This document shows positions 6,473 to 61,000 of a DNA stretch of 64,000 nucleotides, in pieces. Source of the DNA: a virus (lineage: Duplodnaviria > Heunggongvirae > Uroviricota > Caudoviricetes); IMG/VR virus record IMGVR_UViG_3300035701_007101, one strand, 5' to 3'. A program made the translations under genes and the position numbers. The notes under the pieces are model-generated. The model had not been told where the DNA came from. It ran no database searches and saw only the letters and a list, made by a program, of their open reading frames with translations. Position 1 is the first letter of the stretch. Every line of letters starts with the position of its first letter.

Positions 6473-9400
6473 ATGTCAATTGATTTATCAGATCTGTTAG
6501 CAAAATTCTTACATGAACCTATTATAGTTACATCTACTAGAAGTCAACATGTAGATTTAGGAAAAACAGTTGCTTTAATTGTTGCAGCCATAGGTTGGCC
6601 ACAAATGACGTATCAATGGAAGAAAAATGGTGTTGTTATTACTGGCATTGATCATTGTGCATTATTACTTCTTAGGAAAGTATCTGTCATTGATGCTGGT
6701 GATTACACATGTACAGTGACAAACAAATATGGAAGTACTGTATCTCCTGTTTGTAGACTTGATGTTCATGCAATGCCGTTCGTACTTGTGCAGCCTGTTG
6801 CTGTTACTATCGATGAAGCAACTGCATTAACATTATCAGTTGTTGTAGCAGGATCATTACCAATATCATATCAATGGCAAAAGAATGGAATTGATATAAT
6901 TGGTGCAATATCTTCTACATATACAAAAGCTTCTTCAGAAGTTCAAGATACAGGCTTTTATTCATGTAAAGCTGTTAATCAATATGGACTTGTTACTAGC
7001 AAATCAGTTGCTGTTATAGTCAATCAAGTAGGTTTTGCTCCAAAAATTGATGTTCAACCTATAGGATCAAGCATTTTTGACGGTGGTAGTTTTTATTTAT
7101 CAGTTGTTGCATCTGGAACAATTCCGCTGTCATATCAATGGAAAAAGAATGGATCAATTATTACAGGAGCAATTGAAAATTTTTATGCTAAGAATGGTGC
7201 TGTAATGTCTGATTCTGGATCTTATACTTGTGTTGTTACTAATAACAATGGATCAGTTGAAAGCGTTGCTGCTGTTATATCAGTTGTAGGTGTTGCTCCA
7301 ATAATTGATGAACAACCTCAAGATGTTACTATTTATGACGGTGGAGACTTTTCTTTATCAGTCACAGTTCATGGAACAATTCCACTATCATATCAATGGA
7401 AGAAAAATGGTTCAATCATTGGTGGTGCAACAAGTGCAACATATATTAAAACTAATGCTGTAATGTCAGATTCTGGTTCTTATACTTGTGTTGTTACAAA
7501 TGTTATCGCATCTACTGAAACAATAGCTGTTGCTGTTGTAGTTCAAGGCGTAATTCCTGTAATTGACACTCAACCTCAGGATGTTACTATTTATGATGGT
7601 GGAGACTTTTCTTTATCAGTTACAGCTCATGGAACTTCTCCATTGTCATATCAATGGACAAAGAATAATGTTGATATTGGCGGTGCAACTAGTTCAACGT
7701 TTACTAAATCTCCGGCTGGAATGACTGACACTGCATCTTATGCTTGTATTGTGTCAAATATAGCTGGATCGACTTCAACTGATGAAGTTATTGTAACAGT
7801 TCAGGGCGTTGTTCCAATAATTGATGAACAACCACAGAATGTTACTATTTATGATGGTGGAAATTTTTCTTTATCAGTTACAGCTCATGGAACTTCTCCA
7901 TTGTCATATCAATGGAAAAAGAATAATATTGATATTGGTGGTGCAACTAATTCAACTTATTCTAAAGTTGGAGCGCTAATTAGTGATTCTGCACATTATG
8001 TTTGCGAAGTTTCAAATATTATTGGAACTACTAGAACTAATATTGCTGTTGTTACAGTTCAAGCTATTGTTCCGACGATTCAAGTACAGCCTAAAGATGT
8101 AACAATTGATGATAATGAAATTTTTACATTGACTATTGCTGCTACTGGAACGTTACCTTTATTGTATCAATGGAAGAAAAATGATATTGATATTCTGGGT
8201 GCAAATAGTGCGATATATTCTAAAGTTAGTGTCATGAGTGATTTAGGATCTTACACTTGTGTTGTTACAAATGCAGGAGGGTCTATAACTAGTGATGCCG
8301 CTGCAGTAGTAGTAGTAGGAGTTGCGGCTGAAGTTGTTAGCATTGAACCAGACAGTGTAGCAATTGTTGACGGTGAAAATTTTACTTTGACTGTTGCTGC
8401 TATAGGAACTCCTGTATTAACATATCAATGGAAGAAAGGTTTGTCAAATATTCCAGGTGCAACATTATCAGTCTATAATAAAGTTGGCGCTTTAATGACA
8501 GATTCAGGATCTTATACTTGTGTTGTTACAAATGATTATGGCACAGACACTAGTGCAGCTGTCATTGTGGCAGTAGCAGGTATTGCGCCAGTAATTGATG
8601 ATCAACCTCAGGGTGTTTCAATTGTTGACGGTGAAGATTTTACTTTATCAATTACAGCTCATGGAACAATTCCATTAGCATATCAATGGAAAAAAGGTGG
8701 TGTTGTTATTGAAGGAGCAACTAATTCAACTTATTCTAAAGTCTGCGCTTTAATAACAGATTCAGGATCTTATACTTGTGTTGTTACAAATGTAGTTGAT
8801 TCTATTACAAGCAGCGCAGCTATAGTGACTGTTGCAGGAATTGCTCCAGTAATTATGTCAATGACAGGTCCTCAAGGTAATGAAGTGTGGCAAGATATTG
8901 GAACAGCTTTTACGATAATTTTAGTTGCTGCAGGAACTGAACCGCTGTCTTATCAATGGAGAGTTGATTTTACAGGAACTGAAAATGATGATGGTTTAGG
9001 AATTAGAGATATTGTTGGAGCAATTGATACAGTTTATTCAGTAACTAATGCACAAAAAACTGTTTCAGGATTTTATTCTTGTAAAGTGACAAATGTATTT
9101 GGTGTGGCAACGAGTTATTCAATGCTAGTCAATATTGGTCAAGTACCAATGGTAATTAGCAATCCTGAAAATGTTACAGTTGATGAAAGACAATCTTTTC
9201 AGTTAGTAAGTCAAGCAAGAGGAGCATTTTTAAAGTTTCAATGGACAATAAATAGTTTACCAGTAGGCTCATTTGAATCAGTTACGCTTGATGGTCATGC
9301 GATTTTTACAAAACAAGCAGAAGTTTCAGATTTTGGTGTTTACAGTTGCAGATTCGTTAGTTGTTTAGAAAATGGCGATATTCCTGTAGATGCAAAATAT

Positions 9401-10624
9401 GCTTATAGTAAAGCTGTAATTGTATTAGTAACTGAAATTGGATTTGCTCCTGAAATTACTATTCAACCAGTCGGTGTTCAAATTCCTAAACCTGGTGTTG
9501 TAATTACTGGTGGTCAAACAGGCATTGCTGAAGTCGGTACTGTTCAACAAACAATAGCTATGTCTTCACTTGGTGATTATCAAACAATTTTTTCTAATAG
9601 TAACTATGCTCAGTTTTCATCAAATTTTGGAGCTACATGGGTAGCAAGACGTATTGGTCCATATTGGAATCAGTCTGTTAGTGTGTCTGGCAGTGGACAA
9701 TATCAGACGTCTTTTGCTACTGAAGGACGAGGACTGTATGTTTCAGCTAATTATGGTGTAAGTTGGGCGCTGAAAACAACAACTGAAGTAACGAATCCAT
9801 ATATTAGATCTAGTTCAATGGACAATTCTGGACAATATCAATTGGTATTGAATGAAATTTATGGTACTGCAGGAGCTTGGTTATCCAGAGATTATGGAAA
9901 TACTTGGACTAAAGTTGTAGCTCAAGGTGGGTGGGGTGCAACTGCTATATCTGCTAATGGTCAATATATGGCTGTAGCTTTAGCTGCTGTTGGATTTTGG
10001 AGGTCTACTGATTATGGCATAACTTGGACAAAACTTGTCAATTCTCCCTCATATAATGCGTACCAATTTAGAAGTCTTGCATTATCTTATGATGGAAGGA
10101 TTTGGTATTGGGTGGGTCAAAACAGTAATGTATTTGCATCTTCTGATTACGGTGCATCTTTTTATGTTCATTCAGCTTCACCGGCTGGTATAACGTGGTT
10201 ACGTCTTAGATGTTCTATTGATGGTAAAGTCATAGTTGGTGCTGCTGCAGGTCGTCCAATTTATTTTTCAAGAGATTATGGTGCAACATACAATATATTG
10301 CCAGGTTCTGAAGGTAAAGAATGGTCTGATATTGCAATATCAGCTGATGGTTCGAGAATAACTGGTGTAATGACAAATGCTAACATATATGTGTTTACTA
10401 TTTATGAAAGCCCGATTTCATTTACAGTCAGCTTAACTGTTATTGGAACTCCTCCATTATCATATCAATGGGAAAAAGAAGGAATAATTGTTCCTGATGC
10501 AACACAATATTTTTATTACAAGAATTCAGCTCAACCTTCTGATCTTGGTAATTACACTTGTGTTGTAACAAATAATTATGGTGAAATTGAAAGTGATATT
10601 GCAAGAGTTGAAATGGTTCCATAG
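6473..10624 (+). CDS. Giant surface/adhesin-like protein: about 13 tandem Ig-like (I-set-type) domains + BNR/Asp-box beta-propeller + terminal Ig domain
   Basis: 'SYQWKKNG...' followed by 'YTCVVTN..GS' recurs about every 90 aa, 13-14 times (I-set Ig signature). C-terminal region carries repeated Asp-box motifs S-x-D-x-G-x-T-W ('SRDYGNTWTKV','STDYGITWTKL','SANYGVSWAL','SSDYGASF','SRDYGATYN'). Strong RBS AAGGAGAATATATG. Ends with TAG followed by a terminator hairpin. Confidence 0.8.
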   Translation: MSIDLSDLLAKFLHEPIIVTSTRSQHVDLGKTVALIVAAIGWPQMTYQWKKNGVVITGIDHCALLLLRKVSVIDAGDYTCTVTNKYGSTVSPVCRLDVHAMPFVLVQPVAVTIDEATALTLSVVVAGSLPISYQWQKNGIDIIGAISSTYTKASSEVQDTGFYSCKAVNQYGLVTSKSVAVIVNQVGFAPKIDVQPIGSSIFDGGSFYLSVVASGTIPLSYQWKKNGSIITGAIENFYAKNGAVMSDSGSYTCVVTNNNGSVESVAAVISVVGVAPIIDEQPQDVTIYDGGDFSLSVTVHGTIPLSYQWKKNGSIIGGATSATYIKTNAVMSDSGSYTCVVTNVIASTETIAVAVVVQGVIPVIDTQPQDVTIYDGGDFSLSVTAHGTSPLSYQWTKNNVDIGGATSSTFTKSPAGMTDTASYACIVSNIAGSTSTDEVIVTVQGVVPIIDEQPQNVTIYDGGNFSLSVTAHGTSPLSYQWKKNNIDIGGATNSTYSKVGALISDSAHYVCEVSNIIGTTRTNIAVVTVQAIVPTIQVQPKDVTIDDNEIFTLTIAATGTLPLLYQWKKNDIDILGANSAIYSKVSVMSDLGSYTCVVTNAGGSITSDAAAVVVVGVAAEVVSIEPDSVAIVDGENFTLTVAAIGTPVLTYQWKKGLSNIPGATLSVYNKVGALMTDSGSYTCVVTNDYGTDTSAAVIVAVAGIAPVIDDQPQGVSIVDGEDFTLSITAHGTIPLAYQWKKGGVVIEGATNSTYSKVCALITDSGSYTCVVTNVVDSITSSAAIVTVAGIAPVIMSMTGPQGNEVWQDIGTAFTIILVAAGTEPLSYQWRVDFTGTENDDGLGIRDIVGAIDTVYSVTNAQKTVSGFYSCKVTNVFGVATSYSMLVNIGQVPMVISNPENVTVDERQSFQLVSQARGAFLKFQWTINSLPVGSFESVTLDGHAIFTKQAEVSDFGVYSCRFVSCLENGDIPVDAKYAYSKAVIVLVTEIGFAPEITIQPVGVQIPKPGVVITGGQTGIAEVGTVQQTIAMSSLGDYQTIFSNSNYAQFSSNFGATWVARRIGPYWNQSVSVSGSGQYQTSFATEGRGLYVSANYGVSWALKTTTEVTNPYIRSSSMDNSGQYQLVLNEIYGTAGAWLSRDYGNTWTKVVAQGGWGATAISANGQYMAVALAAVGFWRSTDYGITWTKLVNSPSYNAYQFRSLALSYDGRIWYWVGQNSNVFASSDYGASFYVHSASPAGITWLRLRCSIDGKVIVGAAAGRPIYFSRDYGATYNILPGSEGKEWSDIAISADGSRITGVMTNANIYVFTIYESPISFTVSLTVIGTPPLSYQWEKEGIIVPDATQYFYYKNSAQPSDLGNYTCVVTNNYGEIESDIARVEMVP

Positions 10625-24753: not shown

Positions 24754-24824
24754 CCCTCTATAACTCAGTGGTAGAGTGGCGTTCTCTAAAAATGCTGTCA
24801 TCAGTTCAAATCTGATTAGAGGGA
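24754..24824 (+). tRNA. Suppressor tRNA, anticodon CUA (reads UAG amber)
   Basis: Manual cloverleaf fold. Acceptor CCCTCTA/TAGAGGG (7 bp), U8, D-stem ACTC/GAGT with loop AGTGGTA, anticodon stem GCGTT/AATGC, loop C-U-CUA-A-A (anticodon at 24786-24788), variable 4 nt, T-arm ATCAG-TTCAAAT-CTGAT, discriminator A. No encoded CCA. Confidence 0.8.
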
Positions 24825-36170: not shown

Positions 36171-37148
36171 ATGAAAGCAAATTTAGCAAAACAAGATAAA
36201 AAGCGCTTTGTAATTATGTTAATTTGTCTCATTTTATTTTCATTGTGCTTTGCGCAAAAAGATTCAACAAGTGATAGTTCACACGTGCTATTACCAAAGT
36301 CAATCGGTCCAACAACTCTATTTCAAAAATCATCAAGATTTAGAATGCAAGAATATAATTATTTCCTTTTTGGTTTAAGTAAAAAAAGTCCTATAATGGA
36401 ATACAAAAATCAAGTTAAAATTTTATTTAGCATGAAATTTAATTTTTTTACTTTTACTTATGATTCATTATTAGTACTTGTTAAATTCAAAAAGATAACT
36501 AAAAATTTTAATTTATATAGAAGTTTAAACGTTGATATCGGCTATAGACAAAAAAGCTTCTGGAATATTTATGATGATTCTACTTCTCGTCCAATGTATG
36601 ACAATAATTACTCACCCTCTTTCTATCTTTCATGGATAACTTACATCAAAAAAATATCATTACCAATTTCAATATTAGCAGGCTATGTTCACGAATCAAA
36701 CGGTGGAGCTACTTTTTTAAACCCATATTGTCCGGCAATATCAAGAAGTTGGGATAGAATTTATTTAGGCGCAAGCGCAGGAAATTTACAAACAAATCTT
36801 GTAACATTTCAATTAGATATGTGGGTACCTTTTGGTCTTGAAGAAAATACTGATATATATAAACATTATGGAATTGGTGAAATAACTTTGTACTATCAGC
36901 CATTTTTCAAATATCAACATTCATTATCAAATTTTGGTCTATCATTTACGTGGAAAATAGCTAGTGAAAATTTCAACAATGCTGAACTTAGCTTATTTTT
37001 CAGTCCCTTTCAATTTGCTAAAAACAAAATTCTACGATTATTCACGCCCACATTTTATTCTCAACTATATTTAGGAAGCGGTGAGAATTTAATTGATTAT
37101 CAAACTAGACATATTTCTTTTAGAATCGGTTTAGCTACGTTATTTTAA
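36171..37148 (+). CDS. pldA: Outer-membrane phospholipase A (OMPLA, PldA family)
   Basis: Signal peptide 'KRFVIMLICLILFSLCFA'. Catalytic block 'GYVHESNGGATFLNPYCPAISRSWDRIY' vs E. coli 'GYNHDSNGRSDPTSRSWNRLY'. C-terminal 'YSQLYLGSGENLIDYQTRHISFRIGLATLF' vs E. coli '[32 protein letters not shown]'. Terminal Phe of an OM beta-barrel. Confidence 0.8.
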   Translation: MKANLAKQDKKRFVIMLICLILFSLCFAQKDSTSDSSHVLLPKSIGPTTLFQKSSRFRMQEYNYFLFGLSKKSPIMEYKNQVKILFSMKFNFFTFTYDSLLVLVKFKKITKNFNLYRSLNVDIGYRQKSFWNIYDDSTSRPMYDNNYSPSFYLSWITYIKKISLPISILAGYVHESNGGATFLNPYCPAISRSWDRIYLGASAGNLQTNLVTFQLDMWVPFGLEENTDIYKHYGIGEITLYYQPFFKYQHSLSNFGLSFTWKIASENFNNAELSLFFSPFQFAKNKILRLFTPTFYSQLYLGSGENLIDYQTRHISFRIGLATLF

Positions 37149-37496: not shown

Positions 37497-38429
37497 ATGA
37501 AAATTTCAAATATTCATTCATTAATGACAAGAATACAAACTGTATTTATTGATAATTTTGGTTTTACACCATTACGTCAAAGAAATCAAGACATACTCAC
37601 AGAAGCTATTGAGATATCAAGGTTTTCATCGACTGCTAATCTCAAAGAAGAACATGGTGATTTATTGTGCAGCCTTTTAATGAGTTTCAAAGAAAACGGT
37701 TGGGACCCTGTTGAATGTGTTGAAGCAACATTAAATAAAATTGAAAGAAGAAAAAGTCAATATCAAGCATACGGTCGAAAATTGTCAATAGCTATTTTAG
37801 GTGGTGCGTTTGACCCAATTACTGTGGGCCATATTGCAGTCGCTGAATTTCTATTAAATGCTAGCTCACAATTCGACGAAGTCTGGATAACACCCTGTCG
37901 TAAGCATTTATTTAATAAAAAATTAGCAGATGCTGAGTATAGATTAGAATTATGCAGATTAGCAACAAAGCATGATAGACGTATAAAAGTTTGGGATTAT
38001 GAAATTAAACATAAACTTGGCGGTGAAACTTACAATCTTGTTAAACGATTATTAGCAGATAAAGAATATTATGATAAATATAGTTTTTCAATTGTAATAG
38101 GCATGGATAATGCAAACACTTTCAATCAATGGATGAATTTTGAACATCTTGAACGATTAATACCATTTGTTGTTGTTACTAGAAGTGGTATAGAGATAAA
38201 GCATGAAAGTAATTGGTATTTAAAGTCACCGCATAAGTTTCTTGTGCCAGAGAAACCATTGCCTGAAGTTTCATCAACAATTATTAAAGCTGATTTATGC
38301 ATATATTATAATATTTTTAAATCAGCGGGTGCTAGTTTAGGTAAAGAAAATCCATTAATAAATCGATTGAAAAATAATTTGAATCCTGAAGTTTTTGCGT
38401 CAATTATAAAAAATGAGGCATATAAGTGA
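37497..38429 (+). CDS. Nicotinate/nicotinamide mononucleotide adenylyltransferase-like protein (NadD/NMNAT family) with about 95-aa N-terminal extension
   Basis: 'LSIAILGGAFDPITVGHIAVAE' ((H/T)xGH nucleotidyltransferase motif as in NadD 'GGTFDPIH.GH'). C-terminal 'VSSTIIK' (NadD 'ISST.IR'). Confidence 0.55.
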   Translation: MKISNIHSLMTRIQTVFIDNFGFTPLRQRNQDILTEAIEISRFSSTANLKEEHGDLLCSLLMSFKENGWDPVECVEATLNKIERRKSQYQAYGRKLSIAILGGAFDPITVGHIAVAEFLLNASSQFDEVWITPCRKHLFNKKLADAEYRLELCRLATKHDRRIKVWDYEIKHKLGGETYNLVKRLLADKEYYDKYSFSIVIGMDNANTFNQWMNFEHLERLIPFVVVTRSGIEIKHESNWYLKSPHKFLVPEKPLPEVSSTIIKADLCIYYNIFKSAGASLGKENPLINRLKNNLNPEVFASIIKNEAYK

Positions 38430-39296: not shown

Positions 39297-39369
39297 AGAA
39301 AATTTGCTCAATTGGTAGAGCGAAAGATTTAGGATCTTTACGTTGTTGGTTCAAATCCGACATTTTCAT
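39297..39369 (+). tRNA. tRNA with anticodon UAG (Leu codon CUA/CUG by standard rules) but class-I (short variable arm) structure; A1-A72 mismatch
   Basis: Manual fold. Acceptor AGAAAAT/ATTTTCA (6 bp plus 1-72 mismatch), D-arm GCTC-AATTGGTA-GAGC, anticodon stem AAAGA/TCTTT with loop UU-UAG-GA, variable 5 nt, T-arm GTTGG-TTCAAAT-CCGAC. Confidence 0.5.
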
Positions 39370-39604
39370 CCAAACGTTTTATTCAATTTCGCCCTTCTTT
39401 TAATAAAAATTCTGTTGATACATGAGGTTAAACTCATGGTTTTAAAGGGTGCTGGTGAAAAGTCATGATTCCTCCTCGCCCTTTATTTTAAAGGTATAAA
39501 AATTATGAAAATGACAACGAACTTCACTTTTAATTGTAGCAGTTGCTTTAATAGTAGCAACTCAGTGAGGTTCATTTTCTAATTATTCCATTATAGAACA
39601 ACTA

Positions 39605-39643
39605 GAAAAAAGGGCCTCACCTAAAAAATGAGGCCCTTTTTTT
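39605..39643. terminator. Strong bidirectional terminator hairpin
   Basis: GGGCCTCA-cctaaaaaa-TGAGGCCC flanked by an A run 5' and a T run 3'. Confidence 0.55.
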
Positions 39644-40169
39644 ATTGAGAAAAACTATGAAAATGTATATTTTAAGGTATTTGTTTGATATGAATATTAA
39701 ACAATCTAAAAACTTTATTTTAAAGAAATCCCATACCTCAATTTGGAATTTTTTACTTGTAATTTCTAATTTAATGTTTTTATTAAAAACAACATTATCA
39801 CTAAATTCTTCCAATGACTTAGGGATAACAACAATAAATTCATTTAAATTTAAATTACAAGAAAACTATGTACTAAACGCATTTTTAATTTTACATATTT
39901 AAGATTCATAAAGTGAAGATTGTAATTTTTTAAAACTTTGAAATTGTATAAATGAATATGAGTTATGAATTAAAATTAAGTTTTGGTATGATGTGCAGGA
40001 AACAAAACTATTTGAGTTCTTTACAAGGATATGAGATTTTGTCGTGTTCAGAAATATTAAAACGTTATACTATTGTAAAACACGAAAATGATTATGATTT
40101 GGTAGACAATTTGGATTTGTTAGTTGAGTTTTTATATAAGAATATATTTTGAAAATTAGTGTAGTCGCC

Positions 40170-40241
40170 GCCGCCTTAGCTGAGATGGATTAGCGCAAGC
40201 CTGAAGAGCTTGAGAGCACAGTTCGATACTGTGAGACGGCA
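40170..40241 (+). tRNA. tRNA-Phe (anticodon GAA)
   Basis: Manual fold. Acceptor GCCGCCT/AGACGGC (one C-A mismatch), D-arm GCTG-AGATGGAT-TAGC, anticodon stem CAAGC/GCTTG with loop CU-GAA-GA, variable AGAG, T-arm CACAG-TTCGATA-CTGTG, discriminator A. Confidence 0.6.
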
Positions 40242-40252
40242 TTTGAAATCAT

Positions 40253-40327
40253 AGATAGGTACGCAAATTGGCACGCGGCAGGATTGTTACTCCTGTGATT
40301 TTGGGGGTTCGACTCCCTCCCTATCTG
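40253..40327 (+). tRNA. tRNA-Asn (anticodon GUU)
   Basis: Manual fold. Acceptor AGATAGG/CCTATCT (perfect), D-loop AATTGGCA, anticodon stem CAGGA/TCCTG with loop UU-GUU-AC, T-arm GGGGG-TTCGACT-CCCTC, discriminator G. Variable loop is 7 nt by this fold and needs a software check. Confidence 0.55.
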
Positions 40328-40488
40328 TTATTTTAATTATGGAGAAGTATAGGCAATGGATAATAATGCTTTTATAAATTTTCTAATGGAAAGTAGTCGG
40401 ATATTGGTTTGCCGAAGCTATCTGCTAAATAGTTGTTCAATAAAATGAACTGAAAGTTCAATTCTTTCACTTTCCGTTAGGAGATTTT

Positions 40489-41631
40489 ATGTATAAATGC
40501 AATGATTGTAAATTAGATTTTAAAAATCGATCACAATTAGCAAATCATTTTAGATGGAAACATAAACAATGTTTAATTTTCAAATGTAATAAATGCAACA
40601 AAGAAATAACAGATAAAAGCGGTTTGACGATTCATGAAAAATTTTGTACAGGTGTTAAAGAAAAGAAAAACAATATTTGTCCAAAATGTAACTTTACAAT
40701 TAAAACAAACTATAAGAAACATGTTGTTTCATGTAATGGGTTAGGTCCTCGTCGATTAAGAACAAAACATCGCGAGAGAGTTGTTTTAACAAAAGAAAAT
40801 ATTGAAATAATTAGAAAACAATATGATGATAATGTGCCATTAAAAATTATTAGACAGCAAAATAAGTTTTCAAAATTACAAGTTAGACATGCATTAAAAG
40901 GATATAAGAAGCGATCAAAGTCAGACGTTATTAAAAGAAGTCACAAAGAAGGTAGAATGTGCAGACTGCAATTTCACGAATCTTTTGCTGAAAAGTTTTT
41001 TAATGACTTTTTACAAAAATCAGGATATAAATTAGGATTGGATTATATTCGTGAATATAGAGTTTCTTATTATCGAATTGATTTCTTTTTTCAAAATTTG
41101 AATATAGCAATAGAAGTAGATGGATCACAACATTATACATATAATCATCAAATAGAAATTGATAAAAGAAAAGATCAATTATTGAATAATCTTGGTATTA
41201 AAGTAATAAGGTTACCTTGGAAAGTGGTTTGTAATGAGTCAAAAAATACATTAAATGAGGTACTAGATATTATTAAAAACAAAAATGTTGATGAATTTAA
41301 TAATAAACAGAAAATTAAATTAGCAGATTTATTAAAAAAACGAAAAGAAACAAAGAAAAAGCAAAAACAAAGAAAGAAAAATTTGCCAAAAAAATACATT
41401 GAAAAATTAATAATTGCATTAAATAAATGCATTGTATATAAAACATATATGAAGCGCATGAATGATTTAAACAATGTTGATTTAAAAAAATGGGGAACTA
41501 TTTCTGAGCTTTCAAATTTATGGAATGTTTCTCATACTCAGGTTAGACGATATATTGAAAAACATTGTTTGTTAGAAAAATCAAAGACGGTGTGGCAGAG
41601 TTGGTACATGCTACGGTCTGCAAAACCGTAA
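40489..41631 (+). CDS. C2H2 zinc-finger + DUF559/Vsr-like (PD-(D/E)xK) endonuclease-domain protein; candidate tRNA-associated homing-type endonuclease
   Basis: Three C2H2-like fingers ('YKCNDCKLDFKNRSQLANHFRWKH','FKCNKCNKEITDKSGLTIHEKFC','CPKCNF...HVVSC'). 'YRIDFFFQNLNIAIEVDGSQH...LGIKVIRLPW' matches the DUF559 pattern. The 3' end overlaps tRNA-Cys by 46 nt. Confidence 0.5.
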   Translation: MYKCNDCKLDFKNRSQLANHFRWKHKQCLIFKCNKCNKEITDKSGLTIHEKFCTGVKEKKNNICPKCNFTIKTNYKKHVVSCNGLGPRRLRTKHRERVVLTKENIEIIRKQYDDNVPLKIIRQQNKFSKLQVRHALKGYKKRSKSDVIKRSHKEGRMCRLQFHESFAEKFFNDFLQKSGYKLGLDYIREYRVSYYRIDFFFQNLNIAIEVDGSQHYTYNHQIEIDKRKDQLLNNLGIKVIRLPWKVVCNESKNTLNEVLDIIKNKNVDEFNNKQKIKLADLLKKRKETKKKQKQRKKNLPKKYIEKLIIALNKCIVYKTYMKRMNDLNNVDLKKWGTISELSNLWNVSHTQVRRYIEKHCLLEKSKTVWQSWYMLRSAKP

Positions 41632-41658
41632 ACGTCGGTTCAAATCCGATCACCGTCT
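41586..41658 (+). tRNA. tRNA-Cys (anticodon GCA)
   Basis: Manual fold. Acceptor GACGGTG/CACCGTC perfect, D-loop with GG, anticodon stem ACGGT/ACCGT with loop CU-GCA-AA, T-arm GTCGG-TTCAAAT-CCGAT, discriminator U (Cys identity element). Confidence 0.7.
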
Positions 41659-41842
41659 CTTTTTAAATCAATTCTACGATAAATCACATGATTATAATAA
41701 TAAAGGAGGATATTTGACATTATTATAAACTTTTCAAGGAGGTTTTTATAAGATCTATGTGATTAGTTTATTGTTATCTTGTCAGTTTACTGGCTAGATA
41801 TCGTTCTAAAACGAAAATTAACAATTAACGAAGGGATTAAAA

Positions 41843-44858: not shown

Positions 44859-45506
44859 TTAGAACGTGGCGCTGCACCGGCGTCTAATTTCATCAATTAA
44901 CCATTTTCTAGCATTAGTCTGCTGCACAAGTTTATGATTCATGTTGATTTTTTCAATAAATTCTTTGTATGATATTTTTTCAAATGTATAAATAGCTGAT
45001 TCAAGTGAAACATTGTATATCTTACTCAAACTATTTTTGTAGACTTCATAATAAGCATTGCCTCTTAAATATGCTTTCTCATTTTGTTTTCCTCTATGCT
45101 CTACATCATGAAAGTGACTTTTATTATTAATAAATCTACCATCATATCCCAATAAATATATTTCTTTAAATTGTAATGCAATACCCACTGATAAGGCAAA
45201 CAAACCCACTAAATAAGGACTATACATGCCATCTTTAAATCCATTAGTATTATATTGTTTTGACGTTTTTAATGTAATGAAATCATCAGGAACTGACAAA
45301 ACTTTTTTTGTTATTTTCAATGCTTTATTATTTAGTATTTGTTGTTTATTGTTTTGAGAAAAATCTTTATCGACCCAAACAATAGCTGTCGGCTCATAAA
45401 AATGACATACAAAATTTAATCCAAACGTTATGTGATTATTTAATGTATGCAAATCAAAACTATCTATGCTAGAACCACCACCAATTATTATTAGCTTTTC
45501 ATTCAT
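44859..45506 (-). CDS. Hypothetical protein, co-oriented and overlapping with the large glycosyltransferase gene (possible accessory enzyme)
   Basis: 8-nt overlap with 45499..48771. Confidence 0.45.
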   Translation of the reverse strand: MNEKLIIIGGGSSIDSFDLHTLNNHITFGLNFVCHFYEPTAIVWVDKDFSQNNKQQILNNKALKITKKVLSVPDDFITLKTSKQYNTNGFKDGMYSPYLVGLFALSVGIALQFKEIYLLGYDGRFINNKSHFHDVEHRGKQNEKAYLRGNAYYEVYKNSLSKIYNVSLESAIYTFEKISYKEFIEKINMNHKLVQQTNARKWLIDEIRRRCSATF

Positions 45507-48500
45507 TTTTTAATCTTCTTGATGCTTGAAAGTGTTCAATTACAGGCTTATCTGCATCTTTCATTGTGTCAAAGATTTGACAATATGCAGGAGATAAAAT
45601 GTAAGTTTTCAAATTTTGCAATGAATTAACTGCTTCATGAAGATAGGATTGATCTAATTTATATTTTTTATTATTGCTATTAACTAACTGTTTCCATTTT
45701 TCTAACAATTCAAAAGCTTTTTGAGTATAATTGAAATACATAGTACCGCCAAGCAGCTCGCTAGTGTTATTTCTTTTCATTCTTAAGTGATATGCAAAAT
45801 CATATTTATCTAACTTAAATAATAACTCAGGCTGTTGTTGAATTATTGCATCACAATCAACCCATACTACAGGACATCTATGCTTATTTAGCATGTCTTT
45901 AACAAATTCAGTTCTATAAAAACAATTTGCAAACCAACTACCCTGTGAGTTAATACCAATTATTTCATAATTCAATTTAAATTTTTTCAATGATAATTCT
46001 AAAGTTTTGTATTCTTTTTCATAGCCTGTATTTTTAGTATAATAAGACACAAACACTAAGTTAGAAGTCGGTTGTTCTAGTTGACGTGTAACTTGTTTTG
46101 ATTCAACAATTGGTTGAATTTGTTCAATCTCTTTAAATGTGGTTTGTTCAAATTGAATATCTAAATTTTTAAAATCTATATTCTTACGATTAGGTAACAA
46201 ATTAATAAAATCATTACTCATATTTTCAATCTCTTTAAATTTATTTTGCATTACTAATTGAAAAGTGTTATCCCATAATTTCTGAGTGACTGACCAACTA
46301 AAAAACTTTTCAATGTGTTGTCTATTTCTTTCGCCAGTTTGTCGTCTTAATTGAAGATTGTTTTTCAATAACAATAACTTTTCATTCATTTCTTTTATTA
46401 CTTGATCATCAGGTGTCACTGACACTATCCATTGCTCGTCTAATAGCATACAGATACTGCCAACTTTAGTTGAAACAACTGGCAATCCGCAAGCCATTGC
46501 TTCTAATACTACTCTTGGCATACATTCACTTATGCTTGTTAAAATTAATACATCAATTGAATTGTAAAAGTCTTTCATTTTGTCTAATGTTTGACCATCA
46601 ACAAAGTATTGCTTTCCCCAGTCACTCTTTTTTTCAACTTTAAAATCTAATTGATCTAATAAATAAGGTCTTTTTACATCTCTGATGCAGCCTGCCCAAC
46701 CAACAATAAAACTATTTGATTTTTTATTAGAAGGAATAAAGTAATTAGTATCAATAGCTTCAGGTAAGAAAATTACTGACTTGTTAGGATACATTTGTCT
46801 CAAAAAATCCAGATGTTGAATCGAAATTGAGACTATTATGTCAGGCTCAGGTTCGTATTTCATTTTACATTCGCCGCCATAGCCGCCAATTATTTTCACA
46901 TTCTTTTGTTTTAATTGTGTTATCAATTGCTGACATCTAGTATAATCTATATTCGGTGAATGTATGTACACTACATCAGCGCTTAAAGTTGTTACATCTA
47001 GTAATCTTTTATATTCAATGTTATGAGTTGAATATTTTTGTTGATCTTTTGCAATAAAATAATATGCCCAACCGAACTGGTCAATTATTTTACAAATAGT
47101 AAGTTTTTTGTTTTGTAAGGTTGGTTTCTGTTGAATATTTTGAACATTTTTTTTAGTAGGTACATATTCATTCCAATTTCTAAAACATAACTTGCATGTG
47201 TCATTCATTTTATTTGGCTCACAGAGACTGTCTCTTAAATTGCTGGCATAGTCATTTTGCCAGACAATATTATCTTTTATGGTTCCGTGTTCTTTTGCAG
47301 GCGCAAAGACGGAACCACAAAATGAAACGCTTCCGTTACCATTTATGCCAATTGTTGTCCACGGTATTTGACAATTACATCTTATTTCATTTCGTTGTAT
47401 TAATGTAGGATAAAGCTTGATAATGTCAGCTTCTGGTAGATTTTGCAATTCGTCAATTTCTTTTTTATCATTATACGTTAATACTTCATTCCAAAAATTT
47501 TCATCATCATAATTGACAGCTAAGTGAGGTAATAAATTTAATAAATGAACTGTTTTAACACCATGATCTTTTACTAATTTTAAAAATTCAGGAACATATT
47601 TCAAATTACTTTTCGTGCAAACATAAGAACAAAATGTATTAAGATCATTACTTATACAAAAATCAATGCCTTGTAAGACTTTTTGAAATGTATTTGAATT
47701 ATTTATTTTATTATGTAGTTTTGCATTTGGTGCATTTAAGCTAATCGATATATAATCAGGTTTTGCATTAAGTAATTCATTAGCTCTATCAATTATTAAT
47801 GACCCATTGGTTATTAGACCCACAATTTTATTTTTATTTTTCAAATGGTTAATAATTTGAAATAAATTTTGATTTAGAAATGGTTCACCATACCCTGCAC
47901 AACAAAAACTTTTTAAACTATCAAATTTAGATAATAAATTATTGACAGTTTCAATAGTTAAGTCAGGCGCTTGTTCAATTAGATTTGTATTTCTGTAGCA
48001 AAAATTACAATTAAAGTTGCATTTTGAAGTTAAGTATAAATTTGCATTTATAGGCATTTGTAAGAAGCTACGTGCACGTTCAAAGCTTCGATGATGACAT
48101 CTAAAATCTTTTTCACCAATTTGTATGTTATCATTAATCAAACTAGTGTATATTCCAAGAAATGCATATAAGTTATTTTCGGAAGGATTAGATTTTAATA
48201 TATTCCATAATTTTAGCGGTAAATCAGCAATCCATATATATTTGAATTGCTTAAATTTGTCCATTAAATTATAATAACGTTCAAATATACCTTCATTTGA
48301 CCATTGTGGAGCATGTTTGCCAACTATATTTTTAAATAATTTAATTAAATATCCATCTTGTTTAAGTCTGTCAATTTGTTCAACTTCACAAGACATTGAT
48401 TCTAAATTATATGGATATTTTTTGAGAATATCATGCTTGTAAATTTTTACGCCCGAGATTTCAAAGTCAAGATGAACATCAATTAAATTACAAATTATAA

Positions 48501-48771
48501 TGGCAGTTTTATTATTAGATTGCTTAGCGAAATTATAGAGTGTTTCAATGCCATTTTCATTCATAACCATATCTTCATCTATTTCAATATAATATGACGT
48601 TTTACAAGAGTCAATCATTAATTGAAAAGCTGCAGACATTGGATGAACATTTTTAATAATTTCAATATTGAACGTGAGCGTTTGCTGTTGCAATGCTTTT
48701 ATACATTCATTATAGCACGGATTTTCCCCACAGCTAATTACAAAAACAGTTAAGTCTTTAGCAAAGTTCAC
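45499..48771 (-). CDS. Multi-domain enzyme: GT2-like glycosyltransferase + radical-SAM (with extra Cys cluster, SPASM-like) + GT4/GT1-like glycosyltransferase
   Basis: N-terminal 'VFVISCGENPCYNECIKALQQQT' (GT-A-like). 'CNFNCNFCYRN' CxxxCxxC radical-SAM cluster followed by 'CNCQIPW...CGS' and 'CEPNKMNDTCKLC'. 'ILTSISECMPRVVLEAMACGLPVVSTKVGS' is the GT4 E-x7-E signature. Confidence 0.65.
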   Translation of the reverse strand: MNFAKDLTVFVISCGENPCYNECIKALQQQTLTFNIEIIKNVHPMSAAFQLMIDSCKTSYYIEIDEDMVMNENGIETLYNFAKQSNNKTAIIICNLIDVHLDFEISGVKIYKHDILKKYPYNLESMSCEVEQIDRLKQDGYLIKLFKNIVGKHAPQWSNEGIFERYYNLMDKFKQFKYIWIADLPLKLWNILKSNPSENNLYAFLGIYTSLINDNIQIGEKDFRCHHRSFERARSFLQMPINANLYLTSKCNFNCNFCYRNTNLIEQAPDLTIETVNNLLSKFDSLKSFCCAGYGEPFLNQNLFQIINHLKNKNKIVGLITNGSLIIDRANELLNAKPDYISISLNAPNAKLHNKINNSNTFQKVLQGIDFCISNDLNTFCSYVCTKSNLKYVPEFLKLVKDHGVKTVHLLNLLPHLAVNYDDENFWNEVLTYNDKKEIDELQNLPEADIIKLYPTLIQRNEIRCNCQIPWTTIGINGNGSVSFCGSVFAPAKEHGTIKDNIVWQNDYASNLRDSLCEPNKMNDTCKLCFRNWNEYVPTKKNVQNIQQKPTLQNKKLTICKIIDQFGWAYYFIAKDQQKYSTHNIEYKRLLDVTTLSADVVYIHSPNIDYTRCQQLITQLKQKNVKIIGGYGGECKMKYEPEPDIIVSISIQHLDFLRQMYPNKSVIFLPEAIDTNYFIPSNKKSNSFIVGWAGCIRDVKRPYLLDQLDFKVEKKSDWGKQYFVDGQTLDKMKDFYNSIDVLILTSISECMPRVVLEAMACGLPVVSTKVGSICMLLDEQWIVSVTPDDQVIKEMNEKLLLLKNNLQLRRQTGERNRQHIEKFFSWSVTQKLWDNTFQLVMQNKFKEIENMSNDFINLLPNRKNIDFKNLDIQFEQTTFKEIEQIQPIVESKQVTRQLEQPTSNLVFVSYYTKNTGYEKEYKTLELSLKKFKLNYEIIGINSQGSWFANCFYRTEFVKDMLNKHRCPVVWVDCDAIIQQQPELLFKLDKYDFAYHLRMKRNNTSELLGGTMYFNYTQKAFELLEKWKQLVNSNNKKYKLDQSYLHEAVNSLQNLKTYILSPAYCQIFDTMKDADKPVIEHFQASRRLKNE

Positions 48772-48839
48772 TTTTTTGTCACTTTCAAAAATTTTTAATC
48801 TATTAATATAAGATTTAGATTAGGCACCAGTTTACATAA

Positions 48840-49505
48840 TTAGAATGTTCTTCTAAAAGGAGATGCAGTCGGAATATTTATATTGTATGACTGCGGCTTT
48901 GATCCTTTAGGCGCTGCTACTACATTTACTATATAATTGTAATTGTCACTCCAAATAACACCGTCACTGACTTGTAAAGCTATTTGACGAGACATATCTG
49001 ATACGTCGCCCAACACTTTAATTTTAGCTGTTGTGTCAGTTACTGAAGAAATTTCGTATTTAGTTCCAGGTGATACTAGTAATTTAAAACTACCAGGATA
49101 AGGTTTACTTGTTTGAACGTTTAGATTGTTCAAAGTAATTGTAAAATATGAGCCAATGTACATTTTTGGAAAGCTTGTTTGATTGACAATTATTGGAATT
49201 TCAACAACTGTTACATTCAATATGTACCAGTTACTATAATCAATTCCATTATTTACTCTTACTTGAACTGACAGGTTACCTTTATAACTAGCTGTGGGAA
49301 TCACATATAAGTACGTGACTTCACCTGAGTCAGTGTCAATAGTATAATGAGCGCCTGAATGAGCTTCTATTGACCAGTCTTTGCCACTACCGTCTGGATA
49401 GTCTGGATCATCAACAATCAAATCTGTTAATCTGACTGTTAAAACTTTGTTTTCTCCTAAAATAATAGGATTTACAATTTGACCTGTAATAATTGGAGCT
49501 GACAT
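48840..49505 (-). CDS. Hypothetical beta-rich protein (possibly structural)
   Basis: 221-aa ORF. Confidence 0.45.
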   Translation of the reverse strand: MSAPIITGQIVNPIILGENKVLTVRLTDLIVDDPDYPDGSGKDWSIEAHSGAHYTIDTDSGEVTYLYVIPTASYKGNLSVQVRVNNGIDYSNWYILNVTVVEIPIIVNQTSFPKMYIGSYFTITLNNLNVQTSKPYPGSFKLLVSPGTKYEISSVTDTTAKIKVLGDVSDMSRQIALQVSDGVIWSDNYNYIVNVVAAPKGSKPQSYNINIPTASPFRRTF

Positions 49506-58073: not shown

Positions 58074-61000
58074 TTATTCGTTTGCCATTTCATCATATTT
58101 GGCTAATTTCTCCTTTTGCTCGGGAGTTCTTTCATATAAATTGCCAACACAACAAATATCTAACAAATCTATAAATATTCTGCCCATATATTCGCTAGCA
58201 ACAGCTTCACCAACTAAAATATTATCAACTTTGATAACTTCTTGAACTTTGACTTTTGCATATTTTCCAGTTTCTTGTTTTAAAAGAAAAGCGCTTGAGC
58301 ATCTTCTATTATAACAGGGTATTCTAACTTTGACCATGTTAAATTTTGAATCAGTTAATGTCACATAATAATAACTATTATTAGCTTTACTTGTTTTTTC
58401 AACAATCTCAGAAGCTACTCCCCAAACAGTAGCTTTCATATTTACTTTTGGTTGTGTAAAATTTGTTAACATGACAGCTTTTAATTTTGCAACTTCTCTT
58501 TTTTGACTATCAGATAATTTTGTTCGCCAATCTAAAGCATAAGCATCAATAAACTGTTCATGTTCATATTTTGTATCATTATAATCAACATCTCGTTCCC
58601 ACTTTTTCTCTTTTCTTATTTCTTTGTAATATTTTTCTAATATCTCATTTTGAGTGCCAAATGCATCAAATGCATGACCGCTAATTAAAGCTATCATAGC
58701 TGTTTTTGTTATTTTCTTTATTTGTGATGTTTTCTCGCAAAAATCTTCAAATGAATCAAATGGCTGTGACTGTAAAATATTATTTATAACTGCAGGTCCT
58801 ACATGATTTATATGGCCTAAGCCAAACATAATACTTTTTTCTTCACCATATATTGAAAAACCTTCTTTAGCTCTGCTAATATTTGCAGGAACAATACTTA
58901 TGCCATGACTTATGATCTCTGCAAAATAACTTGTAAACTTTTCCTTCAATGAATTTGACAACAATACTACATAAAACTCCAAAGCATAATATTCTTTAAA
59001 CCACATCATCTGGTAACTTAGAACAGTGTATGCTACTGCATGCGAGCGGTTGAATCCGTAGCGTGCAAATGCGACGCAACTTTGCCACAAAATTTCAGCA
59101 GAAGTTTCAATTAAGTCACCGACGCTTATACAGCCCTTAATAAATTTATCATGAATTTCTTTTCGTTGTTTAGCTTCTTTATCTTTTGCATCAGTGTCTC
59201 GTATTGATTTCATTAAATTTTTTCTAACTGTATCAGTCAAATCTAATGGAAATCCTGCAACCATGTGACACAATCTCATTACATCTTCTTGATAAACTAA
59301 AATACCATAACTTGATTTCAAACATTTTTCAACTAATTTTGATTCGTAATTGAATTCTTTACCATTTTTTCTTTGTGCATATTCATGATGCATTCCCATA
59401 TCTAACGGTCCGGGGCGACCTAGCGCTGTTGCTGTCGTTATGTCAGAAAACGTTGTAGGTTTTATTTCTTTCAATAAAGCTTTCATTAAGTTGCTATTAT
59501 GAACTACAAATCCATTAGCTATATAATTATGATTTATAGCTTCAGGATCAAAACCAATATCATAAACTTCTTTTGTACCAACAAATTGAATGGCTTTAAT
59601 TGGCACATATATATACCTGAACATGTGTCTTGCAAATCGTTTATATATTTTAACTTTAACTTTACCCTTTTTCCATACACGTCTAAGAATATAATCTTTC
59701 TTATAAGTTTTTATTGGTCTAAATTTTGACAACAATTGAGGTCTACATGTTCTTTGACCACTTCTAATGCAACTTGCGCAATTTTCAGCTATACCTTGCA
59801 CATCTACTGATCTATTGTAAAATGCACAATAATGTTGACATCTGAACCGCTCTTGATCAATTAATATTTTGTCATCAACTTTTAATTCTTCTAATCTTTT
59901 CCAACCGCGAGGTGTATAAAATTCATGTAGTAATGCAGTTTCAATACATCTATCGTTATCATATTGAACTGTAACTCTGTAAACATCTCGTACTTGTTTT
60001 TTCATAGCAAATATTTTTTGTCTAATTTTCATTTTTCTAGTTGACGGATTTAAATTAACACAGCTAACTTTGTGTATTGACTTTTTATTTTTTTCAAACA
60101 TATCATATAAGTTTTTGATTCTATATGAGCCAACCCATGAATTGCCGTCAATACATTCAAATTGAAAAATACCATTTGTATCAGTTTGTCTAAATTTTGA
60201 ATAAATTGTGTTATTGCCATCTAACGGCAATTTTGATGAAAATTCTTCATAAAATAATGATGTTATTTGCTTATGTTCAATAGATCGTAAATCAAAATCT
60301 GCTTTATCATTATACGATTTTGTTGATCTAATAATGTCAAGTATTTCTTTTATAATAGATAATGTTTTTAGACCAAGAATATCAAATTTAATGAATCCTG
60401 AAGATTGTAAATCTTTTCGAATGATGCCATCAACCCAGCTTGTTATAAGCTCATTTTTATGTCTCATTAAAGGTATTGTTTCATCAATTTTTGTCGGCGT
60501 TGCAACTACACCTGCGGGATGTTTTGTAAGATGTCTTAATTGGCCTTTTAGTTTGAATAAGATCTCTCTTATTTGAGGATGTCGTCCAAGATATTGTTTT
60601 ATATCATATAGATCCTGTCTAAAGCCATCTTGACCAGATTCAATCATTAAAGTTGCGTCAAACACTTCTTCAGACATTTCATCAACATCATCAGCAAGAT
60701 TTTTAACAACATCATTAGTGTCTTGAATATCAATATCAAATATTCTAGCAATATCTCTTAAAACCATTTTCATTTTCATTTGACCGTAAGAGCCAATAGG
60801 AGCTACATGGTCATTGCCATATTTGTCAATAAAATATTTAATGACAAGTTCTCTTTCATTCATACTAAAATCACTATCAATGTCAGGAAATGAAGATTGC
60901 TTTTTGATTTTTAGAACGATGTTGTTTTTGATTGGATCTGTAGACGATATGTTTAAAAGATAATACATTAAAGAACCGTGCGTTTTAACTTTTACTTTAT

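Follow-up and report, generated by a model that had tools for sequence, protein, structure and literature searches.

What would a bacteriophage make with a gene that joins several glycosyltransferases to a radical S-adenosylmethionine (SAM) enzyme in a single polypeptide? Such a gene lies in the 64,000-nucleotide stretch of IMG/VR virus record IMGVR_UViG_3300035701_007101 (Caudoviricetes) analysed here, hereafter the window, which by its gene content is part of a large uncultured bacteriophage genome. Given its length in local DNA of about 29% G+C and its full-length homologues of 53-81% identity, the open reading frame (ORF; Table 1) does not arise by chance and is confirmed as a real gene. 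Metagenomes hold seven full-length or near full-length homologues, 53-100% identical; homologues of the fusion start at the same residues, and its A-rich leader shows no clear Shine-Dalgarno sequence. A sequence-only reading of the locus had described a fusion of three domains, GT2-like, radical SAM and GT4-like. All three are present, but a fourth catalytic module at the C-terminal end (residues ~901-1090) had been overlooked, and the protein comprises four modules in linear arrangement: GT2-like, radical SAM/twitch, GT4 and PF03407-like. Profile scans found no curated NCBIfam or Pfam family that covers the fusion. It is the central gene of an operon of three co-oriented genes (49505..44859), none of whose products, of 221, 1090 and 215 residues, has a transmembrane segment. 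We put at about even the chances that this is a phage operon for glycan assembly by soluble (cytoplasmic) enzymes, in which the radical module edits a sugar and the glycan is most likely carried by a phage protein.

The GT2-like module is identified by its fold. Pfam Glycos_transf_2 (PF00535) gives 13.6 bits on the window sequence, below its cut-off of 23.3, and is matched by four of 14 homologues (best E=1.5e-4), and a PDB sequence search with this domain returned nothing useful, whether as a single sequence or as a profile. The AlphaFold2 model, for which 14 homologues were used, has a predicted local distance difference test (pLDDT) score of 93.2, and all 50 matches listed for it by Foldseek in the PDB are GT-A/GT2 enzymes, headed by a Leptospira glycosyltransferase (6p61, E=2.4e-9). 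Other GT-A fold matches are CgT, WrtF, BcsA, TarP, RmlT, chlorovirus hyaluronan synthase, SpsA and the Che8 glycosyltransferase. Conservation was assessed in 67 representatives that cover this domain and the adjoining radical domain end to end, drawn from a library clustered at 50% identity, and among these C56, C128 and the two aspartates D65 and D67 are each at least 90% conserved. The module is mobile; BLAST finds copies of it, 45-52% identical, as the C-terminal part of other multi-glycosyltransferase proteins of about 1190 residues.

The radical module that follows is matched by Pfam Radical_SAM (PF04055) over residues 246-399 (E=3.6e-22, 79.7 bits against a cut-off of 29.5). Its C251, C255 and C258 are invariant in the sets A1 and A2 and 99% conserved in the 67 representatives, in which the GxGEP and TNG motifs are likewise conserved and C290, a non-cluster cysteine just before the GxGEP motif, is retained in 94%. 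The two further cysteine clusters seen in the sequence-only reading are also genuine, C467, C485, C526 and C529 being 100% conserved, so that all the clusters hold at 99-100% across 67 divergent members; what has to be revised is their description as SPASM-like. A SPASM domain binds two auxiliary Fe-S clusters through a seven-cysteine motif, CX9-15GX4C ... CX2CX5CX3C ... C, a set that is incomplete here: Pfam SPASM (PF13186) gives 15.4 bits, below its cut-off of 21.5, no further conserved cysteine follows C529 in the representatives, and the stand-alone homologues end about six residues beyond it. Because the two extra groups together supply only four ligands, they fit one auxiliary cluster, and hence a twitch rather than a full SPASM domain. 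Twitch domains are truncated SPASM domains that bind a single auxiliary cluster; in BtrN this has four cysteine ligands (PMC9012708).

In a two-domain AlphaFold2 model of residues 1-540 (pLDDT 86.9, predicted template modelling score 0.74) the best Foldseek match of the radical module is BlsE (E=1e-12), at a sequence identity of only ~15-20%, and the next are MoaA, SkfB, viperin-like enzymes, DesII and NifB, with SuiB and anSME also among the matches. BlsE, MoaA, viperin and NifB match at probability 1.00, and the best two, BlsE and MoaA, are both twitch enzymes. Since the NCBIfam matches scatter, within the MoaA/NirJ/SPASM clade only and all far below their cut-offs, the module falls in no named subfamily. 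Three homologues carry inteins inside the radical SAM core, P0008 at the GGEP motif (locus L091, 8001-10649) and P0009 and P0010 exactly at the third cysteine of CxxxCxxC, the last two with LAGLIDADG endonuclease domains; inteins characteristically occupy functionally essential sites. As the cluster ligands, GxGEP and TNG are kept in 67 divergent representatives, the module is under clear purifying selection for both clusters, as an active enzyme.

Both C-terminal modules are glycosyltransferase-like. Pfam Glycos_transf_1 (PF00534) matches residues 706-818 (E=4.7e-14, 52.7 bits against a cut-off of 26.4), Glyco_trans_1_4 (E=2e-13) and Glyco_trans_1_2 (E=1.7e-5) also exceed their cut-offs, and an EX7E motif is found at residues 749-757 (E749-CMPRVVL-E757). 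Profile searches, which the sequence-only reading had proposed as a check on its domains, thus place Radical_SAM and Glycos_transf_1 above the Pfam cut-offs, with the GT2-like module supported at fold level. The last module has 194 homologues, mostly stand-alone proteins of ~190 residues, and a precomputed match to PF03407 (nucleotide-diphospho-sugar transferase) exists for 18 of the 120 listed; the window sequence itself has no Pfam match at E<=0.1, and a PDB sequence search with this domain gave nothing useful. D972, D974, D1068 and the QASR motif (Q1082/S1084/R1085) are 100% conserved in 121 sequences and H1080 is 97% conserved. Fusion of these modules is not universal: GT4 is a separate adjacent gene in the relative L005, and P0007 (880 residues) is without the C-terminal module, which appears to be encoded as a separate gene, P0026, in the same phage, the longest contigs of P0007 and P0026 both being 65,113 bp.

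The pair of GT2-like and twitch radical SAM modules (GT2-rSAM) is a conserved unit that recurs in divergent sequences. A profile search of 1.84 billion representatives returned 534 proteins at E<=1e-30, and at least 67 divergent representatives, nearly all metagenomic, have both domains end to end. Forty of the 67 are stand-alone proteins of ~530-590 residues, 21 have N-terminal extensions, and the six with C-terminal extensions are the window's clade. The two domains stand alone in P0008-P0010, and the pairing persists to 28% identity (P0019). All representatives that were examined in context lie on phage-like contigs, and IMG/VR contains 31 loci, 20 of them with both domains, many on contigs of 110-390 kb. 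GTDB, taken at one genome per species, has the GT2 module at 126 loci, mostly in metagenome-assembled genomes (MAGs) of Planctomycetota, Acidobacteriota and Nitrospira, and a fused radical module at only three of the 80 loci retained, one of which is the phage contig L005. In Nitrospira/Nitrospirales MAGs (L060-L084) one or two genes for B12-binding radical SAM enzymes are found 2-5 kb upstream of a gene for the GT2 module, a further link, here without fusion, between this type of glycosyltransferase and radical enzymes. Against GenBank phages, megablast of the locus found no match and tblastn of the full fusion found eight weak single-domain matches, none of them to the GT2 module. The remark of the sequence-only reading that this is not a standard phage gene is therefore apt: no GenBank phage record has the GT2-rSAM unit. 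BFVD holds no two-domain structural match, and literature searches found no description of a glycosyltransferase-radical SAM fusion.

The genes around the unit in the 13 phage lineages inspected lend strong support to the suggestion that it serves in building a glycan. Every GT2-rSAM neighbourhood inspected is made up of sugar enzymes, including GT4 glycosyltransferases, methyl-, sulfo- and pyruvyl-transferases and epimerases. The cluster of the sister phages L001, L002 and L092 contains a GT10 fucosyltransferase-like gene, further methyltransferases and a protein with a WbdD-like methyltransferase domain, and in L001 and L092 a TylF O-methyltransferase (E=2.5e-87). L005 has a sulfotransferase-like gene, an NAD epimerase/dehydratase and the separate GT4, with portal and prohead protease genes 4-7 kb from the cluster; this contig was deposited within a Bacteroidales MAG despite its phage portal and protease genes. 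The neighbours on the 528-kb contig L085 are an Srx-like/methyltransferase partner, a methyltransferase, a GT4-like gene and one that resembles UDP-glucose dehydrogenase. In L090 the unit is itself part of a GT4-GT4-GT2-rSAM fusion, accompanied by methyltransferase and sulfotransferase genes, and L091 has a DUF115-like homologue of the 215-residue window protein, a partner, the intein-bearing GT2-rSAM gene, a methyltransferase, a GT4 and a GT2.

In four lineages (L087/L088/L099, L089, L102 and L114) the unit lies just downstream of a head protein gene. The order in L087 and L088 is prohead protease, scaffold, major head protein, a 238-residue protein, GT2-rSAM, partner, GT4 and a GT2_4-like gene, and in L087, L088 and L099 the unit is found ~0.9 kb beyond the gene for the major head protein (phrog_1005, E=5.3e-53). 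In L089, L102 and L114 a head-protein homologue lies 2-5 kb upstream; the L089 head module is followed by methyltransferase, epimerase, B12-radical SAM, GT2-rSAM, GT2, GT4 and PIG-L deacetylase genes, then a GT4 fused to a pyruvyl transferase and a further glycosyltransferase. This position, seen in four lineages, and the known cases of capsid glycosylation by viral enzymes make a protein on or in the virion the favoured acceptor.

The partner named in several of these clusters, a protein of ~350-430 residues, is absent from the window. It accompanies the GT2 module in most viral loci, whether or not a radical module is attached, and does so more constantly than any other neighbour. Its C-terminal half is a methyltransferase domain whose best match is WbdD, the kinase/methyltransferase that terminates the O-antigen chain in E. 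coli O9a (E=1.9e-11); in the N-terminal half a DGxHR motif is conserved, and the profile match there is a weak ParB/Srx-like (SbnI) one (E=0.025). It may be a kinase-plus-methyltransferase enzyme of glycan capping, and the likeness to WbdD suggests capping of the non-reducing end. It nevertheless differs from WbdD in that its N-terminal half is not a WbdD-type kinase and it has no membrane-association region.

A resemblance to an O-antigen chain terminator would also fit an action of the clusters on the host envelope, altering or capping lipopolysaccharide, capsule or an undecaprenyl-linked glycan, for instance to block superinfection or aid release. The GT2 module is after all common in bacterial MAGs, at the 126 GTDB loci, where it often follows a GT4 in a fusion, its Nitrospira copies have B12-radical SAM genes nearby, and the window encodes an outer-membrane phospholipase A1, so that the host is probably Gram-negative. 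We nevertheless judge envelope remodelling quite unlikely, given that the three operon proteins have no membrane anchor, that the inspected clusters contain no flippase, polymerase, ABC exporter or initiating phosphoglycosyltransferase, and that the unit is carried by large phages which encode replication genes of their own and show no integrase in the regions examined. Such a role would, moreover, hardly explain why several lineages place the unit directly behind the head protein gene.

In the window's own clade the two small operon genes accompany the fusion. The first encodes a protein with two beta-rich repeats of ~100 residues and a C-terminal tail of ~25 residues, for which Pfam gives only weak Big_9 and tandem-95 matches. 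It is 52-56% identical to the first operon gene of L001, L002 and L092. Only five homologues are present in the databases, the two that could be placed on contigs have fusion homologues on those same contigs, and all the close relatives examined have inherited the gene together with the fusion; none was found beside the GT2-rSAM unit in other lineages. We infer that this Ig-like protein is the leading candidate for the glycan acceptor in the window's clade. The sequence-only reading had offered another, the 1383-residue Ig-repeat protein, which we rejected: it lies 35 kb away and has no similarity to the co-inherited Ig-like protein.

The small co-oriented ORF that was earlier seen to overlap the fusion downstream is indeed there and looks like a gene for a sialyltransferase/DUF115-type enzyme. 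Its product matches phrog_4603, 'alpha-2,3-sialyltransferase', at E=1.8e-12, and Pfam MptE-like weakly (E=0.076 in the window, 0.0068 in L001; 13.2-16.6 bits against a cut-off of 34.6), with no PDB sequence match to a single sequence or a profile. It is 53-60% identical in L001, L002 and L092, and the distant phage contig L091 has a homologue of 24-27% identity, placed two genes ahead of GT2-rSAM. The gene order of the operon is conserved in the three sister phages; since in these phages additional genes separate the Ig-like gene from the fusion, the window operon represents a minimal form. Promoter and terminator scans of the operon gave counts not above shuffled expectation.

The tail of the 221-residue protein is rich in serine and proline and partly conserved, and could itself be a substrate if the twitch module acted on a peptide side chain or backbone, preparing a site for the fused transferase. 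Most characterised SPASM and twitch enzymes are peptide maturases (PMC9012708), SkfB, SuiB and anSME are among the fold matches of the radical module, and weak NCBIfam matches to sactipeptide and WgkB maturases exist, although all of these NCBIfam matches are far below their cut-offs. What precedes the radical core, however, is a GT-A fold with a helical tail and not an RRE/PqqD-like leader-binding domain, no short precursor-peptide gene is conserved beside the unit, and in most lineages the unit occurs without the 221-residue protein. Peptide-directed chemistry thus seems very unlikely.

Returning to the assembly of a glycan, the operon could work as follows. The transferases would add sugars sequentially from host nucleotide-sugar pools, with the product of the 215-residue gene contributing a fifth, sialyltransferase/DUF115-like activity. 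The CxxxCxxC cluster would cleave SAM to a 5'-deoxyadenosyl radical, and this would take a hydrogen atom from a sugar carbon, either of the donor nucleotide-sugar of the GT-A module or of the residue which that module had just installed. Oxidation, epimerisation or deoxygenation would resolve the substrate radical, with the fully cysteine-ligated auxiliary cluster as an electron conduit and, speculatively, C290 as a candidate hydrogen-atom donor, and the product would be a rare sugar that needs no dedicated nucleotide-sugar pathway. The oligosaccharide would be received by the co-transcribed Ig-like protein in the window's clade and by the capsid in other lineages. That the radical chemistry would fall on a sugar is in keeping with the closest folds of the radical module, which include enzymes acting on sugars, sugar-nucleosides or nucleotides (BlsE, DesII, MoaA and viperin). 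Among twitch radical SAM enzymes, BtrN oxidises a sugar-like substrate (PMC9012708), and NeoN and HygY epimerise sugar-like substrates (as cited in PMC10991966); such chemistry, for which BlsE and DesII among the fold matches are further examples, belongs to the pathways of aminoglycoside and nucleoside antibiotics. The domain identities, the conserved catalytic motifs, the fusion and the gene neighbourhoods are established by the analysis, while radical chemistry on a sugar, the order of the steps and the acceptor are inferred.

Several observations weigh against this scheme. Neither sequence nor fold reveals the substrate of the radical module, whose sub-threshold NCBIfam matches (tungsten-cofactor maturase, MoaA, NirJ and sactipeptide maturase) point in different directions; the role given to C290 is speculative; and the literature and databases searched hold no characterised member of the family. 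The 221-residue protein is restricted to one clade and so cannot be a general acceptor. The operon of the window, like that of its closest relatives, is surrounded by replication and recombination genes and not by structural genes. A 5-hydroxymethyldeoxyuridine (5-hmdU) DNA kinase gene (PF18723, E=1.5e-46) directly adjoins the L005 cluster on the opposite strand, and genes for an N6/N4 DNA methyltransferase and a uracil-DNA glycosylase lie upstream of the L085 cluster, within 10 kb.

The last three of these points are those on which a role in DNA modification would rest, as the earlier reading had allowed, with a sugar chain built on 5-hydroxymethyl-pyrimidines of the phage DNA and remodelled by the radical SAM module to protect against host nucleases. 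The window operon is set amid AAA ATPase, RecA, DnaE and PolX genes, nucleotide-acting enzymes are among the nearest folds of the radical module, phage GT-A and GT-B enzymes are known to build di- and trisaccharides on 5-hydroxymethylcytosine (bioRxiv 10.1101/2023.12.21.572611), and in phage M6 the radical SAM enzyme gp53 sculpts a DNA base modification (PMC8989533). The M6-type enzyme is, however, spore-photoproduct-lyase-like and not of twitch type (PMC8989533). Base-modification pathways usually cluster together (bioRxiv 10.1101/2023.12.21.572611), yet neither a ThyS-like hydroxymethylase, nor a C5-methyltransferase/5mYOX pair, nor a 5-hmdU DNA kinase was found with Pfam or PHROGs in the window ORFs of at least 120 residues, all but three of which were scanned; this is not proof, as only 64 kb of the genome is visible. 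A tblastn search with the L005 kinase found no homologue, either in the window or in L001-L004. In four lineages the unit lies within the head-gene module, and its surface-glycan partner enzymes (the WbdD-like methyltransferase, TylF, sulfotransferase, pyruvyl transferase and PIG-L) are unreported on DNA. We consider modification of DNA unlikely, though still a rival to be reckoned with. Of the two targets named in the sequence-only reading, a virion glycan or a modified nucleotide, the context favours the glycan on a protein or virion, but the one relative whose unit adjoins a 5-hmdU DNA kinase speaks for the other.

How far does the proposed glycan operon resemble known systems? One close parallel is chlorovirus PBCV-1, in which A111/114R, with three glycosyltransferase domains, and A064R, with two and a methyltransferase, build the glycan of the capsid protein (PMC7826918). 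Like the fusion, these are virus-encoded, soluble single polypeptides with several glycosyltransferase modules that are independent of the host glycosylation machinery, and both O-methyltransferases and the GT10 fucosyltransferase-like gene are found in relatives of the window operon. PBCV-1 is, however, a eukaryotic giant virus, its proteins have no radical SAM module and no detectable sequence relationship to the fusion, and for the fusion there are only candidate acceptors. In mycobacteriophages, phage glycosyltransferases are reported to decorate capsid and tail-tube subunits (Freeman et al. 2023, as cited in PMC12619734), which is comparable to the phage-encoded transferases here and to the four lineages with a GT2-rSAM unit just downstream of the head protein gene. 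The mycobacteriophage enzymes differ in being separate small glycosyltransferases with no radical SAM module, and the window operon differs from their type in adjoining replication genes and not structural genes.

A chemical precedent for the late-stage editing of sugars is given by the dehydrogenase BtrN, the epimerases HygY and NeoN and the decarboxylase BlsE, which share with the fusion the CxxxCxxC motif and have, as is predicted for the fusion, one auxiliary [4Fe-4S] cluster, held by four cysteines in BtrN and matched by four invariant cysteines in the fusion. These are stand-alone enzymes of bacterial antibiotic pathways, though, and none is known to be fused to a glycosyltransferase or to occur in phages. 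Sugar hypermodification of phage DNA likewise builds short glycans by serial GT-A and GT-B enzymes, often near replication genes (bioRxiv 10.1101/2023.12.21.572611, a source with no mention of radical SAM enzymes); its clusters contain a C5-methyltransferase/5mYOX or ThyS, whereas base-activating enzymes of this kind were not found in the window or near close relatives. None of the systems compared joins a glycosyltransferase and a radical SAM enzyme in one polypeptide. The general kind, viral glycan biosynthesis, is known, and the enzyme family at its core is uncharacterised.

A bolder proposal is that GT2-twitch-rSAM proteins are a new enzyme class that couples transfer to radical editing, the same sugar being both transferred and edited, by epimerisation, oxidation or deoxygenation, after or just before its transfer, such that phages would display rare sugars on their virion proteins from common host nucleotide sugars only, and that the window encodes a complete four-step 'glycan synthase' for a dedicated Ig-like carrier. 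This we consider less likely than not and advance tentatively. To our knowledge all sugar-editing radical SAM enzymes have so far come from antibiotic pathways, in which they act as proteins of their own; if such an enzyme proves to be fused obligately and conservedly to a glycosyltransferase, this would open an unexplored branch of radical carbohydrate chemistry and a phage route to unusual glycans. Protein glycosylation by phages has, as far as we know, barely been studied outside mycobacteriophages. Decoration of virions by these clusters would bear on phage recognition, stability and immune evasion, and modification of DNA, should that be their function instead, would add radical chemistry to the repertoire of DNA glycans. 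The three-gene version in the window, with a carrier candidate, a four-module enzyme and a fifth transferase, would be an unusually small system for reconstitution.

Table 1. Positions of the features discussed, in the window and in related loci
Feature	Sequence	Position	Strand	Basis or remark
Fusion ORF	window	45499..48771	minus	1090 aa, GTG start, TGA stop
GT2-like GT-A glycosyltransferase module and helical tail, aa 1-239	window	48055..48771	minus	fold match, DxD D65-E-D67
Radical SAM core and twitch auxiliary-cluster domain, aa 240-535	window	47167..48054	minus	Pfam, fold, Cys conservation
CxxxCxxC motif C251/C255/C258, predicted for the SAM-cleaving [4Fe-4S] cluster	window	47998..48021	minus	conserved Cys
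Putative auxiliary-cluster ligands C467-X12-G480-X4-C485 ... C526-X2-C529	window	47185..47373	minus	conserved Cys
GT4-type GT-B glycosyltransferase module, aa ~556-865	window	46177..47106	minus	Pfam, EX7E
Small PF03407-like GT-A module, aa ~901-1090, and stop codon	window	45499..46071	minus	homologues, DxD D972-C-D974
Ig/cadherin-like 221-aa protein, first operon gene	window	48840..49505	minus	weak Pfam, synteny
215-aa downstream gene, putative sialyltransferase-like/DUF115 (MptE-like)	window	44859..45506	minus	overlaps fusion by 8 nt
Partner family member	L001	5391-6449
Partner family member	L002	6094-7146
Partner family member	L087	11631-12914
Partner family member	L085	13612-14646
Partner family member	L091	6830-7999
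5-hmdU DNA kinase	L005	10838-12013	minus	PF18723
1383-aa Ig-repeat protein	window	6473..10624		rejected as partner or relative of the 221-aa protein
Trigger factor homologue, full-length	window	16472-17770	plus	Trigger_N, FKBP_C, Trigger_C
CoaD-type cytidylyltransferase-like domain fused to CoaE	window	23587-24753	plus
tRNA with CUA anticodon (amber suppressor)	window	24754-24824	plus	ARAGORN 'Pyl'
Outer-membrane phospholipase A1	window	36171-37148	plus	PF02253, E=1.8e-23
Second CTP_transf_like gene	window	37497-38429
Five tRNAs (Leu-tag, Phe, Asn, Ser-gct, Cys)	window	39297-41659
DnaE, split in two genes	window	58074-61160 and 63001-63885	minus
TnpB/Cas12f-like gene	L001	17877-18926	minus	OrfB_IS605, Cas12f1-like_TNB
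TnpB/Cas12f-like gene	L085	9255-9971	plus	OrfB_IS605, Cas12f1-like_TNB

The remainder of the window is that of a large phage with its own replication and repair genes, among them an FtsK-like ATPase, two helicases, an NAD-dependent ligase, PolX, RecA, the split DnaE and an RNA ligase, together with DnaB, an AAA ATPase, six tRNAs, a trigger factor, a CoaD/CoaE fusion and the outer-membrane phospholipase A1. One 58% identical fusion homologue, P0006, is deposited under an archaeal MAG ('MAG: radical SAM protein [Nitrosarchaeum sp.]'). Given that the gene content of the clade is bacterial in type (DnaE, NAD-dependent ligase, sigma-70 and outer-membrane phospholipase A1), its contig is probably a mis-binned phage fragment. 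An archaeal virus origin was rejected for the window, in view of its bacterial-type DnaE, NAD-dependent ligase, DnaB, RecA, trigger factor and outer-membrane phospholipase A1, and the sigma-70 factor encoded by relatives of its clade weighs against such an origin as well. The larger part of DnaE carries an intein according to the precomputed Pfam matches of an identical contig, L004.

Some of the window genes are uncommon in their own right. The trigger factor homologue is full-length, and a ribosome-associated chaperone is unusual in a phage. A CoaD-type cytidylyltransferase-like domain and a dephospho-CoA kinase (CoaE), corresponding to the last two steps of coenzyme A synthesis, are joined in one auxiliary gene of the phage, and a second CTP_transf_like gene is also present. 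The tRNA directly after the CoaD/CoaE gene has the CUA anticodon of an amber suppressor; recoding of TAG was considered as an explanation and rejected, as TAG still terminates eight of 43 long ORFs and there is no evidence of recoding. The other five tRNAs are interrupted by a DUF559/zinc-finger endonuclease-like gene. The outer-membrane phospholipase A1 possibly acts in lysis or entry. Finally, TnpB/Cas12f-like genes lie less than 10 kb from the glycan cluster in two unrelated phage contigs, L001 and L085.

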